From Naegleria gruberi (taxonomy: Eukaryota), in NCBI GenBank assembly GCA_000004985.1, contig GG738874.1: a stretch of 64,000 nucleotides of DNA; one strand, 5' to 3'. Below are positions 9,382 through 16,757 of this stretch, one piece after another; the first letter of the stretch is position 1, and each line of letters begins with the position of its first letter. Made by a program: the position numbers and the translations under genes. A model generated the notes under the pieces. The model did no database searches. It was given only the letters and a program-made list of their open reading frames with translations, and was not told the origin of the DNA.

Positions 9382-11865
9382 CTAATCAAATAAGTTGAAT
9401 GTGTTTGATGCTCCATTGTCATTCTTCTTTCTATCTCTGAATGGGAATGGAATAAATCCAGGAGATTGATCACCAGCCAAGTGTGGAGAAGTGTGAGATG
9501 GAGGAGAGTGATGATTTGGAGTTTGTTGTGGTGGAGAATACATTGAATTACTAGTTGGATATCCAACTGGAGAAAAACCAAACGGATTATAAACAACATT
9601 AGGATTTGGCATTTGAGCAAATCCTCCCAAGAATGGCGTTCCTGGAGCAGTTCCCCAATTGGCCTGTGGATTAGAGGAAATTCCACCATTATGCCAATTT
9701 CCAAATACACTGTCATAAACAGATGGAGCATTGGATTGTTTTTGTGGTGGTGAGCTTAATAACTTGCTCATCAAATTTGACTTTTCTATTGGTGAACTTA
9801 GTCCATTATTTACAGGAGTTGAAATTCTCTGGTTGAATAATTGATCATTGATGAATGGTGAATCTACATTGTTTCTCATGAATGGCTTTTCGATATAGTC
9901 GTTTCCAGCTTGGCTTGAAATGTTAAGCTTGGAAAGTGATGAAGGACTATCATTTTTCATTTCTGGAAGGGATGTGCTGTCAGTCTTCCAAATATTACTG
10001 CCTCCTGCAGGAGTAATGAAGCCATTGGTGCTTGTTGTAGCATTGTTAGGAAGAGCAGTAAAACTCTTTGGTTCAATATGTTGATGGTCCAAAGTCATAC
10101 TGTCACTAATGTCATCCACAATAATTTCATCATTAATATCATCCAACAAGTCTCCGTTAATTACAATACTCTCGTCATCAATTTTATCGTCATCTTCAAT
10201 ATCATCTTCAAAGCTTGCTGTTGAGAAGGCTCTGTCATATTCTCTGTAATAAAAACTGATAATCTTGTCATTGATGAGTTCATTCATTTGCTTTTGGAAT
10301 ATCTTGTTCAATGATTGTTTCACATTGGAGTTTTCATTTCTAGTTGAAAAGGTTCCAAGATTACCATTCAATGGATTGTATCCTAGAATGTCGTGATAAA
10401 ATCCATTTTCTCCATCATCAGCAAGTCTTTGATCATCGACAATTTTAGCATATAAGAAGCAAAGGTTATTGCACAATGCTTCATTATCATAGAGGTAGAT
10501 TTTTCTATTTTGAAGGAAATATTCAATGTAGAGTACCAATGAATTGTAAATATCAAAATTCCTAATAGAATCAGATTCATAAAGATCTGAATAGTGGGAG
10601 ATGAGCTTGGCAAAGAAAGCTTCGTTGAAAATCTTACTATAATTATTGGAATTTTGTTGATCCACAAACAAGTTCATGATTGTTGCTTTGAAAAAGTAGG
10701 AGCTGTCATTTTCAGGAACTTCTGCAAAAATTTCCTCAATAATATTCAAATTATCATCATCCAATTCTTCAATAGTAGATTGAGATTGGAATAACTTTCC
10801 ATGGAGAGTTAAAAGTTTGAAACTAGGTTTTCCTTTCATCTTTGGAACGTTATTCTTGAAAAGAAGAATAATATTATCTCTAGCAGATTTGAATGGTCTG
10901 TGAATACAGCTCAAACTTCTATAATATCTATAGATGGCCAAAAAGTAGTCATTTTGATAGGTGGAAATTACAGCCAATTGATTCCAAGCATTGCCGAAAT
11001 TGTAAGATAATTGAACGGCTTTCTTGTAGTACTTTTCACTCTTTGAAAAGTCCATATTCTTAGCATTTAGCAAGGTTTTATATCTGAACAAGTCACCTCG
11101 TTGGAGAAGAACTTTTTCCTTCTGGAATAGTTCCGAAATCTTTTTATAAAACTCCTTATACTCCAAAATACTATCATTAAGAAACTTGATGTATAGATCC
11201 TTTCTCTCCTTCAATACAGGGTTTCTTCTGAATAATTCAATCAATTTGTAATAAAAAGTTTTCCAAATTTGCAAAATCAAATCATACTTCTTGTCATACT
11301 CTGTATCGGAGAGTGCAATATTTTGATATTGTTGAATACAAGTTGAACGAAGAGAACAAAAGTCTTGTGGTTCTCTTTCTCCGCTAAGACTTTTAATTAC
11401 ATTAGGGATCTTTCCTTCATCTGAGAGGAATGCCAAGTATTGTTCCTCATGTTTTTTAACTAGGGAGCATTGAAGTTTAGTTGATTTTTCATTGCTTGGT
11501 TTCGGAGTTGGATTTGATGGATTTTTCAATAACTGTGGAACAGCAGTTACATTGTTTGTTCTAGTTGATGATGTTGTTGTAGTTACATTATTAGGTATCA
11601 TCATAATATTTCCGCGTTGTTGCTGTTGATTATTTGTACTAGATGATGTTGCTCTACCGTTTGATGGATGACCACTAGTGGTTGTTGTTGTTGCTGGTTT
11701 TTCTTGTTGTTGGGCAGTTGTTTTTAGGGTGAGAGGATTTTTGTAGAATCCTTTTCCTTCCACTCCTTGTTGTATTTGTTGTGGTTTTTGCCCACCATTA
11801 TTAATACCACCATTGTTTTGCTTGTTGTTGATCATCGAACGAGGTGGATTCGTTGAGGATGACAT
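9382..11865 (-). CDS. EST1/SMG5-SMG6-SMG7 family protein (14-3-3-like TPR domain), probable nonsense-mediated-decay / telomerase-associated factor, with long Gln/Asn/Thr/Pro-rich low-complexity ends
   Basis: 827-codon continuous ORF; ATG in a TAAAAAATG context (plus 11863-11865). The central block ...KYYKKAVQLSYNFGNAWNQLAVISTYQNDYFLAIYRYYRSLSCIHRPFKSARDNI matches the EST1/SMG7 signature (G.PYNQLAIL......YYY.RSL.V..PF..A..N). The assignment rests on this motif only. Confidence 0.6.
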   Translation of the reverse strand: MSSSTNPPRSMINNKQNNGGINNGGQKPQQIQQGVEGKGFYKNPLTLKTTAQQQEKPATTTTTSGHPSNGRATSSSTNNQQQQRGNIMMIPNNVTTTTSSTRTNNVTAVPQLLKNPSNPTPKPSNEKSTKLQCSLVKKHEEQYLAFLSDEGKIPNVIKSLSGEREPQDFCSLRSTCIQQYQNIALSDTEYDKKYDLILQIWKTFYYKLIELFRRNPVLKERKDLYIKFLNDSILEYKEFYKKISELFQKEKVLLQRGDLFRYKTLLNAKNMDFSKSEKYYKKAVQLSYNFGNAWNQLAVISTYQNDYFLAIYRYYRSLSCIHRPFKSARDNIILLFKNNVPKMKGKPSFKLLTLHGKLFQSQSTIEELDDDNLNIIEEIFAEVPENDSSYFFKATIMNLFVDQQNSNNYSKIFNEAFFAKLISHYSDLYESDSIRNFDIYNSLVLYIEYFLQNRKIYLYDNEALCNNLCFLYAKIVDDQRLADDGENGFYHDILGYNPLNGNLGTFSTRNENSNVKQSLNKIFQKQMNELINDKIISFYYREYDRAFSTASFEDDIEDDDKIDDESIVINGDLLDDINDEIIVDDISDSMTLDHQHIEPKSFTALPNNATTSTNGFITPAGGSNIWKTDSTSLPEMKNDSPSSLSKLNISSQAGNDYIEKPFMRNNVDSPFINDQLFNQRISTPVNNGLSSPIEKSNLMSKLLSSPPQKQSNAPSVYDSVFGNWHNGGISSNPQANWGTAPGTPFLGGFAQMPNPNVVYNPFGFSPVGYPTSNSMYSPPQQTPNHHSPPSHTSPHLAGDQSPGFIPFPFRDRKKNDNGASNTFNLFD

Positions 11866-11982: not shown

Positions 11983-14583
11983 TTATTTCGTTGTTTCAAT
12001 TAGGGAATGAATAACTTCTTCACAAACCAGTATCCACTCTAATTGTTCAGTTTCAGTTTGTGTCTTCATTACCAAATCTCCACGGCTGGTCTGTGTGATT
12101 GTAAAGCTCAGTTCCGTGTCTGATTTCTTAACATTTGATTTGGCTGTAAATTTAATTTCTTCTGGGTTGATAGATTTGATTGTCTTGTACACTTTCAAGT
12201 GAGGATCCATACTTCCCAACACTATCCAACGTTTTTTCCAAACATCCTTGCTTGCTTTCTGTAATTGAAAAGTTAAAATACTTGAACTAAAAAAACACTT
12301 ACCTCACTTCTGGTCATGACAAGTACATTTCCACACTTGATCATTTCGTTGGTGAGACTATCCTCTTCTTCCTCTTCATCCAGAGAGTCATTAAGATTTT
12401 GTTGATGTTTCTTGAACCCTCCCTTGATTGGAACGACAAGCTTTCCTCCTGTTTTTTGTCCTATTCCTTTAACAGTTTGATTTTGTGAGAGTTGATTCAA
12501 AATACTACCCTCCTCAAATTTAACCTCCTTGTTGTTTGTTAGGAAAACATCCAACTCATCCTTAATCATCTTACTTTGGTTTTCCAACATTTGTACATAA
12601 TCTTTCAACTCTTGAGTGGTGAAATTCATTTCCAACTCACTAACATCCTTCTCTGAAATATTAGAAAGAGACTCACTAGATGAAACAGTATCGGCTGCTT
12701 GAGATTGTTTTGGTTGCTCTGTGGATGTAGGATTTGTAATGAGTTGGTCCATATAGTCTCTAATTTCATTAGATGCAGTCTCCACTATTCCCTTAATTTC
12801 CGATCTATCTTTTTTAATTTTCATCAGCTCGTCAATTACTGTTGTCACTGCACTAGAGTACTGTCCATGGTCTTGCAAGAGTTCATCCTCAGTATTTTCA
12901 TTACTAGCTACCTGAGTGGAGAGCTTCAACTTGAGGTGTTCATTATTATTTTGTAGTTCCGTGCATTGTCTCTTATATTCAACCAGTTCTGAAATGAGAG
13001 AGGAAGTTTTTTCTCCCATTGTAATATTCAGCTGGTTTTCTCTTCCTTTCAAAATTTCCACTTCAAGTCTCAATCTCTGAATTTCATTTTCCTTGTCTTG
13101 TATCAGTTTATCCTTTTGTTGAACTTGCTTTAACAGTAAAGAGTTTGCATAGCTGAGCTTTTCATTATTATTTTTGGAAGCTTTAAATGCAGACAATTCC
13201 GATTCCAAAGACAAGTTTTGTGCTCTCAAGTCGTTAATTTCTTGCTTGGCAACTGCTAGTTGCTTTCTATATTCAGAGTCACTAGTTTCCAAATTGACTT
13301 TTGGTTTGTTTTTAATATTTTTAGCACTGTGACCAAATCTTAGGGATGAAATTGTTTCTTCCTCGTTAATTGTACTCGGTGAGCAATTGACCATGAGTGT
13401 GGTTCTTGCATTTCCTCCAAGGGCATCTTGTAAAAGTTTAGTTAGTTTACTTTCTCTGTAAGGTACGTGGGTGCTCTGCAAACGTTGTCACACCATTATA
13501 ATAAGAAAACTTACATTCTTCTCAGTTAAGGCGTTAATAACCTTAGCTAGAGTGGCAAGACTCTTATTGATTGTCTTGGCTTCCTCTAATCTCAACCCTG
13601 TGGCTTCAGTCTTGGAAACTTTTTCCTGAAAAAATATGAGAATGAGTTTTAAAAGAAATCAAAAACATACACTTCCCGCAAGATCTACAATATACAATTT
13701 GGAAACTATTTTCTGACCTTTTCTAGTGTCATGTTGTGTGACAGTTATTGAGAAGATGGTGTGACTTCTACTACTGTCTCTATTCATTTCTGATAATTGA
13801 TGATTAGATTTACAACAATAATTCAAAACTTACTAGTTGAGGAAATTTTCTTATTCTTATTACCAATTTTCATCAATCTCAATACTTCCTCCTCGCTAGA
13901 CACGTACAACTCTGAGAGATCTTCCACATAAAAGTTCTTTTCGTTAGTGTCTTCCTTTACATTTAAATTTTGTTTTGAAGCTATCATACAGAGATTATTT
14001 AATCACAATCTCACTAAACTTACGTTCGAATAAATCATACAATTTTTCCATGTAAACCTCAAAGAATGATACTTTGACTGTGAACTCTACATGGTCTGGT
14101 GACTGATCTATTGCCTCAAACAAACCACATACCATTCTTGGAGCGATACCTCTCTCATCCTAAATAATTAAATCAATGAATATCACATATGATGTATTAG
14201 AATCCACAATCCATCAATACTACAATACATACAAGTTTGTTCTTCTTCGGCAAATTCATCATGGTGTATGTTTTACCGGAACTAGTTTGACCATAAGCAA
14301 AAATCGTACAATTGTATCCCTTGATAATATCTTCAATGAGAGGTTTTCCGACCGATTCAAATACACTAGATTGACTTGCTGTAATTCCAAATACTTCATC
14401 AAAAGTAAAAGTAATACCCTTAGAGGGCAGAGTCACTGTCTCGTGATCATTAATTTCCATACAATGTCTTCCTCCTGCTTCCATCTCCAAAGTTGGTCTA
14501 AATCTACAAACAACTTGCACCCGACTCCTCGTAAAACTCTGACTCGAGGTAAGGGATGAAGAGCTAGAGCTGTGATGATACAT
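11983..14583 (-). CDS. kinesin motor protein with coiled-coil stalk and C-terminal PH domain; 7 exons (minus strand): 14233..14583, 14024..14159, 13834..13980, 13671..13789, 13515..13625, 12303..13475, 11983..12258
   Basis: The motor domain is split over exons 1-6. Motifs present: [10 protein letters not shown]; P-loop [11 protein letters not shown]; DERGIAPR; switch [12 protein letters not shown]; switch [18 protein letters not shown]; the neck [18 protein letters not shown]. All donors are GTAAGT or GTATGT, acceptors are CAG or TAG, and the phases are consistent: 0,1,1,0,0,0. Exon 6 carries about 300 aa of heptad-rich stalk. Exon 7 ([25 protein letters not shown]...[13 protein letters not shown]) has the PH-domain pattern, including the C-terminal helix Trp. 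Total 770 aa. Confidence 0.9.
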
Positions 14584-14756: not shown

Positions 14757-16757
14757 CTAGATAAAACTTGTCTTTTCTCTTTCCATGTTTTTAAGGTGAG
14801 AGGACCATTGTTTGGAGAGTCGTTCTTGCTGTTGATATTCTGAGGCAAGTCGATTGGCACGTTCCTCTTCACTCTCGAGGGAGGGCATTACTACAACAAA
14901 ATCAATGGATAGTATGAAACAGGCAGCTTCGGTGGCAGTTTGGAAAATGTTTCTCTTCACTCCACACGGTTCTAGAATGGTGGAGAAGGTTATCTTGTCA
15001 ATGTATTTCTTTCCATTGTTGCCACTGGTGTGATGTGGTGGCAGGAGACTCATGATGGAATTTCTTGAAAGATTGAGTCCACAATAGGTATTTCCACTTT
15101 CATGTTGTAAGGATAGTGTCTCAATAACTTTGGATGCATTGAGTCCAGCATTGTCACACAGAATGAAAACAATTTCCTCTAAAGATTTTCCAAATGATTT
15201 CATGCACTCGAGAATGGATAGGGCGTGGCTATTGGTGGTTTTGGTTGACTTGTCAAGACAATACTTGTGAAGGAGAGTTTTTAAATGCATTTCAGTGGCA
15301 CCTCCACCGAGATGGCAAATAGGTTCTCTGATAACATTTTCTAAAATACACAATGCATCGTGCATACTTCTCTTCGATTCTTCCAGAATATTTTCCTCTC
15401 CTCTGAGTACGATGGTCATTGTTTCATCATGGCCTGACTTTTTAAATCCAGACAAGATACAGTAAAAATCCTCTCCAACAGTTTTCTCCTCAAACATGGA
15501 ACATGTTCCATACAATTGTTCATTCTCATACATGGTAGAAAGATCTTCAATGGAGGAGAATATCTGACCACCCAATGACTTGACAATTGATTCAATGGTT
15601 TTAGAATCCATCTTTCCAAGTGAGGTGATTCCATTTTGTGTAAACCACTGAGTGGCAATATCTCCAGTAGTTTGTAAATTAAGAATAAGATCACACTTTG
15701 TGTTGGTAATGACGTCCAGTTGTCTCTTTAGCAAATTCCACTCTGTTTCAATAAAATTCTGATATTGGATTGGATTATTAATAACAATTCTAGCAAATTC
15801 TTTCTGGTGCTTGAGTTCCAATTCATGATTGAGGATGAGGATTTTTGGATTTTCAATTTTCTTTTGTTGTTGTTCATATCCTGCATAGTAAAAAGGTCTC
15901 CTGAAACAAATTCCCTCAATTACGAAAGAATCTTGTATTGAAGAACCAGGAATTGGGCAAAATTGAATATTCTCAATAGAGAATGCATCTCCTATTTGAG
16001 AGTTTCTTTCTTGTTGAACTGTTCTCAATTTATAGTATGAATCCACCAGTAGTGAGGCAAAAAAGGATGAATGATTTTTCAAAATCTTACTATTGAAAGG
16101 TACTCTCACAAGTTCAATCAAAATATTTCTAGTACTTTCATTCCAATCCTCCAGATTAAGATGCAGCTCAATTTCCTTCAATTCCTTCTCTACAAGTTGA
16201 TGTGCCAGCTGAAAATCAATATTAATTTCTCTCAAATTCCAAGAAAACAAACCTTATAGCTCTGTATAATAGTATGAACATTGTATCCAAGATTCAGTAA
16301 ATGTTTAGCTTGCCTCAACAAGGCACAAGCCAACAATACCACACTTGTTGTTCCTTTCACATGTCAATAAAAAATCAAGCAATGACAACCTACCATCACC
16401 CACTTGTTCATCCTGTGTCTGGCTAATATTCACCAATAATTCAATTACAGGTTCCGTACTAAATGCCCATTTGATACTCTCAACTTTTGATTGTTGTTTA
16501 TCATTTGGTCCTTTTTTAATTTTCCTTTTCAAATATTGAAGAATGGTGGCTCCATCGTTGGTGATTGTGATTTTACCACTCTCCCTCTCACAAAACAATT
16601 TATCTCTTCCGAATGGTCCATAGGTAGTTTTCAGAATGGATCCGATTTTAAGAGCAGCCTCTATATTATCTAAAACAACTTCTAATCCATTCCTTCCTCC
16701 TGCAATGGAAGATGAAGAAGCAGAAGAAGAATTTTCGGAAGTTATTGTTCTTTGCAT
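14757..16757 (-). CDS. group II chaperonin, T-complex protein 1 (CCT/TRiC) subunit, divergent; 3 exons (minus): 16394..16757, 16253..16353, 14757..16208
   Basis: ATG in an AAAAATG context. Exon 1 contains the ITNDGATIL and LGPFGRDKL motifs and ends in phase 1 inside ...EQVGD|G. The spliced join restores the canonical VGDGTTSVVLLA motif (intron 16354..16393, GTAGGT...AAAG). Intron 2 (16209..16252, GTTTGT...TTTTCAG) joins ...IQSYK|LAHQLV. Exon 3 holds the GGGATEMHL motif. At 638 aa the protein is unusually long, with Ser-rich N-terminal and charged C-terminal extensions. Which CCT subunit it is cannot be told from sequence alone. Confidence 0.85.

Follow-up and report, generated by a model that had tools for sequence, protein, structure and literature searches.

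A kinesin-1-type motor with a C-terminal PH domain in Naegleria gruberi and its relatives

The 64,000-nucleotide stretch of Naegleria gruberi DNA analyzed here (the window; contig GG738874.1 of GenBank assembly GCA_000004985.1) carries at 11983..14583 a seven-exon gene for a 770-residue kinesin that we call a PH-kinesin; the gene lies on the minus strand, as do all features given below. Its predicted product joins a kinesin-1-type motor and a helical stalk to a diverged IAK motif, an acidic linker, and a basic PH domain, and this arrangement, as read from the sequence, is new: our literature searches returned no kinesin-1-type motor with an IAK-type remnant and a terminal PH domain that is conserved across Heterolobosea. 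Kinesin-1 is the textbook cargo motor, for which light chains or adaptors are usual, and lipid binding through a built-in PH domain is considered a kinesin-3 hallmark. A kinesin-1-type motor with its own PH domain following an IAK remnant would combine these two solutions to cargo binding in one lineage. On balance, we favor the interpretation that the PH-kinesin derives from kinesin-1 and would act as a dimeric plus-end motor whose PH domain binds membrane cargo directly in flagellates. The locus is a real, expressed gene that was already catalogued in the 2010 inventories of N. gruberi kinesins; its PH tail was previously undescribed.

The motor domain (aa 20-342; 13314..14526, spanning exons 1-6) matches the Pfam kinesin motor over aa 48-342 (E = 4e-109) and contains the P-loop GQTSSGKT (aa 98-105; 14292-14269), switch I NRDSSRSH (aa 214-221; 13784-13761), and switch II DLAGSE (aa 247-252; 13685-13623, across intron 4). 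It runs into a kinesin-1-type neck linker and neck start (aa 339-351; 13287..13325), in which an 11-residue stretch of the neck linker is identical between the PH-kinesin and the N. gruberi kinesin-1B gene 33335. Scores against motors in the PDB were 282-356 bits for kinesin-1, compared with 261 for KIF3B, about 250 for Eg5, 235 for KIF4, 230 for KIF15, and 228 for KIF1A. Among 5.8 billion proteins searched, the best 120 matches after the orthologues were nearly all kinesin heavy chains, KIF5, or the Kif3 of Dictyostelium and other dictyostelids; many of these matches are unnamed, and every one named by its source is a kinesin heavy chain, KIF5, or Kif3. Dictyostelium Kif2 was not among the best matches of either full-length search. 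Over a 288-column alignment of motors from the family-labelled Wickstead dataset and named kinesin-1 matches, identity was 52-60% to every kinesin-1, at most 49% to kinesin-19, -17, and -2, and 40-44% to kinesin-3. In neighbor-joining (NJ) trees with 300 bootstraps, PH-kinesins formed a clade with 100% support that united with kinesin-1 in 98% of replicates; with the addition of P0141 and P0183, two divergent members described below, these values were 100% and 97%, and PH-kinesins grouped with kinesin-19 alone in 0% of replicates. Judged from these comparisons, the motor is kinesin-1-like, a kinesin-3 affiliation is excluded, and the PH-kinesins are a distinct clade that is either sister to kinesin-1 or nested in it. 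The preliminary description of this DNA had called the motor kinesin-1-like from its motifs, and the PDB scores, the identities, the tree, and the neck linker all bear this out.

The region following the motor also resembles kinesin-1. AlphaFold was run separately on the exon-6 product (aa 289-679) and on the tail (aa 627-770). In the exon-6 model, the stalk (aa 353-626; 12462..13283) opens with a 128-residue helix (aa 354-481, pLDDT >90), breaks or hinges at aa 482-490, and continues through a second helix (aa 491-535), a disordered Ser/Thr/Gln-rich segment (aa 536-573), and a conserved helix (aa 575-602), with disorder from aa 603 onward. The stalk is thus helical, as had been proposed, and is not a continuous coiled coil of 300 residues; it comprises about 250 residues, of which about 200 are helical and fall into three helices. 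We infer that the protein dimerizes by coiled-coil contacts of neck and stalk. Beyond the last stalk helix lies an IAK-like motif (aa 633-644; 12408..12443), a diverged counterpart of the R-I-A/V-K-P-L-R-G-G-G of kinesin-1, which takes the form K-[L/V]-[V/I]-V-P-[L/I]-[K/R]-[G/A]-G-[F/Y]-K-K in PH-kinesins. Set against the consensus RI[AV]KPLRGG, the N. gruberi residues KLVVPIKGG (aa 633-641) are identical at P, L/I, G, and G and conservative at four further positions. The canonical motif was present in 157 of 213 full-length kinesin-1 proteins, with the consensus G-S-R-I-[A/V]-K-P-L-R-G-G-G; its median distance from the C-terminus was 43 residues. A relaxed IAK-like pattern was absent from unrelated proteins totaling 91,015 residues and arose in 2 of 200,000 shuffles of the PH-kinesin tail. 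We regard the motif as good evidence that the tail, like the motor, would be of kinesin-1 ancestry. A conserved acidic linker (aa 645-667; 12339..12407), containing 6-11 Asp or Glu and 0-1 Lys or Arg in the orthologues, leads from the motif to the PH domain.

The PH domain occupies aa 666-769 (11989..12344). Our FHA/PH scan gave for the N. gruberi copy a full-length Pfam PH match over aa 667-762 that scored 16-22 bits (21.7 at best) and so stayed below the cutoff of 25.1, and all five orthologous tails match PF00169, with a best E value of 1.3e-14 over profile positions 2-104 of 105. The AlphaFold model of the tail, for which the orthologue tails served as alignment, shows seven strands (residues 40-51, 58-68, 73-77, 86-89, 95-98, 104-110, and 113-118 in model numbering) and a C-terminal helix (122-143) at a pLDDT of about 90. 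When this model was compared to the PDB with Foldseek, the top 50 matches were all PH domains, including those of pleckstrin (C-PH), Akt, SKAP55, CERT, TAPP1, and ARAP3. Target-normalized TM scores were 0.62-0.82 for single-domain entries, and the rmsd was mostly about 2.4-3.9 Å for crystal structures and larger for NMR and cryo-EM entries. The predicted structure confirms the C-terminus as a true PH fold.

The preliminary description had assigned the PH domain to an exon of its own. The domain is real, but the exon is not its own: strand β1 (aa 666-677) comes from the 3′-end of exon 6, whose last 12 codons are 12338-12303, and exon 7 starts in the β1-β2 loop and supplies β2-β7 and the C-terminal helix. 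The intron that separates them lies at exactly the same position in Naegleria lovaniensis, where the residues ILSKSS are followed by an intron running GTAAGT...CCAG and then by NSSQDVWKKRW. In Willaertia, the stalk-PH region is intronless, with aa 286-814 being 100% identical to one uninterrupted open reading frame (ORF; L001:5021-6607). With β1 in exon 6 and no intron at this point in Willaertia, the exon structure is no evidence for recent exon shuffling, and the idea of a domain-shuffled motor finds no support in it. Since stalk and PH domain share one ORF in Willaertia, the PH tail is not a gene-fusion artifact; together with the conserved tail and synteny, this rules out fusion or mis-splicing, and exon 7 does not belong to a different gene, as had been considered.

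What we propose about dimerization, plus-end motility, membrane binding, and autoinhibition draws on homology and expression. The expression data of Fritz-Laylin and Cande (2010), as given in Table S1 of Velle et al. (2022), list a log2 (amoeba/flagellate) value of -3.637 for this gene, corresponding to about 12-fold more mRNA in flagellates than in amoebae 80 minutes into differentiation. Naegleria amoebae are described by Velle et al. (2022) as lacking cytoplasmic microtubules, so the motor could act only on the arrays of the flagellate or, conceivably, on the spindle, and the flagellate-biased mRNA argues against a mitotic role. The absence of microtubules in amoebae and the induction in flagellates would together confine the job of this motor to a short, inducible window. 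The protein would dimerize via its neck and stalk and walk to microtubule plus ends in the manner of kinesin-1. Its tracks would be the cytoplasmic and basal-body-rooted microtubules, which only the flagellate possesses. In conventional kinesin-1, cargo is taken on via light chains and via tail sequences that bind adaptors; fungal kinesin-1 has no light chains. In the PH-kinesin, the PH domain would link the motor directly to a membrane, through acidic lipids, phosphoinositides, or a membrane-associated ligand.

Several observations weigh against a membrane-binding motor of kinesin-1 descent. In the PH domain, hand alignment to Akt1 and Grp1 places Val or Ile at the canonical β1 Lys position, and Acrasis has Val at the β2 Arg position. 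In the tail, every PH-kinesin that bears the IAK-like motif has Val in place of its central Lys (K922 in KIF5B), and P0141 and P0183 are without any IAK-like motif. As for the motor, our NJ trees are distance-based and contain few outgroups, kinesin-5, -6, -15, -16, -18, and -20 and Dictyostelium Kif2 being absent from them. Kinesin-1 alone was monophyletic in only 13% of replicates, or 43% once P0141 and P0183 were added, such that the tree leaves undecided whether PH-kinesins are sister to kinesin-1 or nested within it. Finally, Wickstead et al. (2010; PMC2867816) put this gene, as Naegr_34430, in the small group X11, alongside Dictyostelium Kif2 and two further members and outside the Kinesin-1 node, and listed only a KISc domain for it, with no PH domain and no tail motif.

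The most serious alternative, though we consider it rather unlikely, is that the PH domain serves in targeting or in protein interactions, with tubulin, a small GTPase, or a protein of the cytoskeleton or basal body as a possible partner, and that the motor organizes or slides flagellate microtubules or delivers protein cargo. The absence of the β1 Lys in all orthologues and the Acrasis substitution are in keeping with such a role, as is the established knowledge that many PH domains do not bind lipid. The kinetoplastid proteins TbPH1 and TbKifX2C reside at the microtubule quartet and basal-body area and not on vesicles, and the PH-kinesin is expressed specifically when basal bodies, flagella, and cortical microtubules are being built. 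The signature of phosphoinositide-binding PH domains is K-Xn-[K/R]-X-R across β1 and β2. Its β2 portion is present in the PH-kinesin, where the basic motif VWKKRWIVL (12243-12217) contains K687 and R689 within WKKRW, a pair that we take to correspond to R23/R25 of Akt and to the WKRRW of Grp1. Conservation of this element (the first Lys is invariant, and W-K-x-R/K is found in four of five orthologues), the basic character of the orthologue PH domains (pI 7.9-9.6), and a Lys-rich β1-β2 loop in Willaertia argue against a purely proteinaceous ligand, and the closest structures include the lipid- or inositol-phosphate-bound domains of Akt, TAPP1, pleckstrin C-PH, ARAP3, and ASAP1. We therefore consider lipid binding plausible, with a specificity that is not predictable. 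The minimal membrane-cargo, phosphoinositide-binding kinesin of the preliminary description is still a conjecture: the β2 pair is present, but the canonical β1 Lys is not.

Improbable in our estimation is a second alternative, in which the PH-kinesins belong, with Dictyostelium Kif2, to an independent ancient family, X11. The similarity to kinesin-1 would then be no more than a likeness, and the IAK-like motif would have arisen by convergence or been retained from a shared primitive state. This view draws on a Bayesian phylogeny that covered 1263 kinesins and assigned Naegr_34430 to X11, not to its supported Kinesin-1 node, and on a BLAST score of 285 to KIF5B that is slightly above the 266-274 of N. 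gruberi kinesin-19 genes (PMC2867816 table); the 100% support for the PH-kinesin clade itself also fits a separate family. Against it stand the 97-98% of replicates that unite PH-kinesins with kinesin-1 and the lack of any that pair them with kinesin-19 alone, the nearly exclusive kinesin-1 character of the best 120 matches, without Kif2, the kinesin-1B neck linker, the IAK-type motif in the tail position expected of kinesin-1, and the phylogeny of the N. gruberi genome paper, which assigns the gene to kinesin-1. That phylogeny underlies its listing as kinesin family 1 in the table of Velle et al. (2022). A position sister to or nested in kinesin-1 reconciles the published labels kinesin-1 and X11. 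A third alternative, a degenerate kinesin-3 of Unc104/KIF1 type in which the PH domain survived the loss of the FHA domain and of most tail sequence, has the PH domain as its sole support and is already refuted to the point that we give it virtually no weight: motor identity and PDB score fall well short of those for kinesin-1 (40-44% vs 52-60%; KIF1A 228 vs 356 bits), the kinesin-3 references lie far from the PH-kinesin clade in the NJ tree, neck and tail carry motifs of the kinesin-1 type, kinesin-3A has genes of its own in N. gruberi (80962 and 39261; PMC2867816), and the Pfam scan found no FHA match even at E ≤ 1, the region after the neck being modelled by AlphaFold as a continuous high-confidence helix. 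A kinesin-3 motor with a hidden FHA region, also entertained in the preliminary description, is ruled out by the same Pfam, PDB, identity, and tree results. The N. gruberi genome encodes ordinary kinesin-1B as well, from genes 33335/79591 and 72809 (PMC2867816).

Returning to the kinesin-1-derived, membrane-binding motor that we favor, the IAK-like motif raises the question of whether the PH-kinesin is autoinhibited. In KIF5B, K922 is the center of the pseudo-palindromic sequence QIAKPIR, and I920 and I924 pack into a pocket formed by F116, I119, Y120, F128, and I130 (PMC12228791). By direct alignment, the counterparts of these pocket residues in the PH-kinesin are F131, I134, D135, F143, and V145. 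We regard the motif as weak evidence that autoinhibition would work as it does in kinesin-1. We speculate that the IAK-like segment may still fold back onto the heads in the absence of cargo, and that engagement of the PH domain may relieve this state, which is the most speculative step of our proposal because the central IAK Lys is replaced. A bolder version, which we offer only tentatively and think unlikely to hold in full, is that the PH-kinesins are an old, distinct, adaptor-free subfamily of kinesin-1, the true identity of X11, in which direct binding of membrane lipid by the PH domain would draw the neighboring acidic linker and IAK-like segment away from the heads, and which would be deployed only when Naegleria forms cytoplasmic microtubules in the switch from amoeba to flagellate. 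If true, cargo recognition and the release of autoinhibition would be coupled within one polypeptide. At 770 residues and with no known accessory chains, the protein would be a compact natural construct for the coupling of cargo binding to autoinhibition release.

The PH-kinesin has close relatives. The best database matches are in N. lovaniensis (62% identity, 98% coverage), Naegleria fowleri, Willaertia magna, and Acrasis kona. N. lovaniensis, Willaertia, Acrasis, and the sequence P0005 share its tail. Its elements occur in a conserved order, namely the stalk end, K(L/V)(V/I)VP(L/I)(K/R)(G/A)G(F/Y)KK, an acidic run, and KCG...WKxRW.V(L/I)...YK..KS...EW. The tail by itself gave no matches in a word-indexed homology search; divergent motor-coiled-coil-PH members were recovered by an exhaustive search with a tail profile. 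Two of them, P0141 (905 aa, from a JGI metagenome) and P0183 (994 aa, from a Logan assembly), are divergent full-length members of the PH-kinesin clade and extend the family beyond the named Heterolobosea. Both have large insertions in the motor, for instance after the P-loop, and P0183 contains Asn-rich low-complexity tracts. By these comparisons, Naegleria, Willaertia, Acrasis, and several other protists all have the conserved motor-stalk-PH architecture, consistent with the lineage-specific motor suggested at the outset.

Comparison to known systems places the PH-kinesin closest to the kinesin-1 heavy chains (KIF5/KHC, fungal Nkin, and Dictyostelium Kif3/Kif5), which have the nearest motor by sequence and tree and with which it shares a neck linker of the form AK.IKNK.KVN, a hinged helical stalk, and an IAK-type motif at the stalk end in a disordered tail. 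It is of similar or lesser length, as fungal and protist heavy chains are, with a total of 770 aa vs about 930-1100 and a shorter stalk. It differs from kinesin-1 in its terminal PH domain, which no canonical heavy chain in the 213-protein comparison set carries, in Val for the central IAK Lys, in GG[F/Y]KK for GGG, in the acidic linker that follows the motif, and in forming its own clade. Like Unc104/KIF1A (motor-FHA-...-PH), it carries a C-terminal PH domain on an N-terminal motor of plus-end type, which suggests that its cargo, too, may be bound directly through lipid; PI(4,5)P2 is reported as the lipid of the UNC-104 PH domain (PMC2973836). Unlike Unc104/KIF1A, it belongs to another motor family, has neither an FHA domain nor the neck and tail modules of kinesin-3, and is half the size or less. 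A third likeness is to the X2 kinesins of kinetoplastids (TbKifX2C and the kinesin-like TbPH1), which combine a motor, a coiled coil, and a C-terminal PH domain outside kinesin-3 and also come from a discoban lineage. However, X2 is a divergent, kinetoplastid-restricted family of microtubule quartet-associated proteins, and TbPH1 has an inactive motor and an additional homeodomain-like fold, unlike the PH-kinesin. X2 kinesins were not among the matches of our homology and profile searches with the PH-kinesin. X11, finally, is the published class of this very gene, which is grouped there with Kif2. The preliminary description held that PH-domain kinesins are normally kinesin-3; PH domains do occur in kinesin-3, but examples outside it are known, such as TbKifX2C and the N. 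gruberi protein 71914. The latter appears in the N. gruberi rows of Additional file 3 of PMC2867816 as an unrelated, divergent KISc-PH protein, beside a KISc-MORNx7 (56509) and a KISc-kinase-SAM protein (81903); kinesins with atypical tails seem to be frequent in N. gruberi.

The gene model was built from reading frames, consensus splice sites, and agreement with the orthologues, and it reproduces exactly the seven-exon, 770-residue splicing of the preliminary description. Translation starts at the ATG at 14583 and ends at the TAA at 11985-11983, and the exons are 14583-14233, 14159-14024, 13980-13834, 13789-13671, 13625-13515, 13475-12303, and 12258-11983. The spliced coding sequence of 2313 nt comprises 770 codons and a stop, with no internal stops. 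Intron 1 (14160..14232) is 73 nt, and introns 2-5 (14023-13981, 13833-13790, 13670-13626, and 13514-13476) are 43, 44, 45, and 39 nt, respectively. All six introns have GTAAGT or GTATGT at the 5′-end and YAG at the 3′-end, range from 39 to 73 nt, and are more AT-rich than the exons (22-33% vs 37% GC). Enumeration of all GT..AG intron combinations yielded hundreds of frame-preserving models and was not discriminating.

The last intron (12259..12302; 44 nt, phase 0, GTAAGT..ACAG), whose position agrees with that given earlier, interrupts the β1-β2 loop of the PH domain, and the predicted junction of exon 6 with exon 7 reads ...ACCAGAAGTGAG / AAAGCAAGCAAG... in N. gruberi. Its retention (12273-12311) would add nine codons (VSVFLVQVF) and then a stop, giving a 688-residue protein with only strand β1 of the PH domain; such a PH-less isoform is possible. 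The N. fowleri model P0002 and the JGI metagenome fragment P0158 end in apparent read-through of the last intron (...SKSDVSISLFKLLY and ...KLTDDVSIVLLLE, respectively), and P0002 is also without part of the N-terminal motor. An intron is thus apparently at the same position in N. fowleri too, and it appears that the PH exon of P0002 and P0158 was missed by annotation, rather than that these are real PH-less proteins. The PH-kinesin may in this way flag orthologues that are mis-annotated for want of their PH exon.

The gene corresponds to N. gruberi JGI model 34430, with alternate model 68781, and to XP_002676147.1, and its motor is identical to Naegr_34430 in the deposited alignment of Wickstead, Gull, and Richards (2010; PMC2867816, Dataset S2). 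A literature search by the name NAEGRDRAFT_34430 returned no paper, and text matches to "Kinesin-1" in Naegleria papers turned out to refer to kinesin-13 and kinesin-14. As used by Wickstead et al., JGI model 34430 begins around the internal Met42 (MEINDHETV...) and so is without motor strand β1; the first 42 codons lie at 14458-14583, and the orthologues favor the upstream ATG at 14583. A scan of the whole window with ARAGORN found no tRNA genes. The PH-kinesin gene is flanked by a gene for a TCP-1/Cpn60 chaperonin subunit (14760-16250) and by one for an EST1-domain protein (9385-11865), an 827-residue single ORF rich in Asn/Gln/Ser/Thr tracts. With intergenic spacers of about 117 and 170 nt, these three genes are arranged in the order TCP1-kinesin-EST1, which is common to N. 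gruberi and N. lovaniensis (L002).

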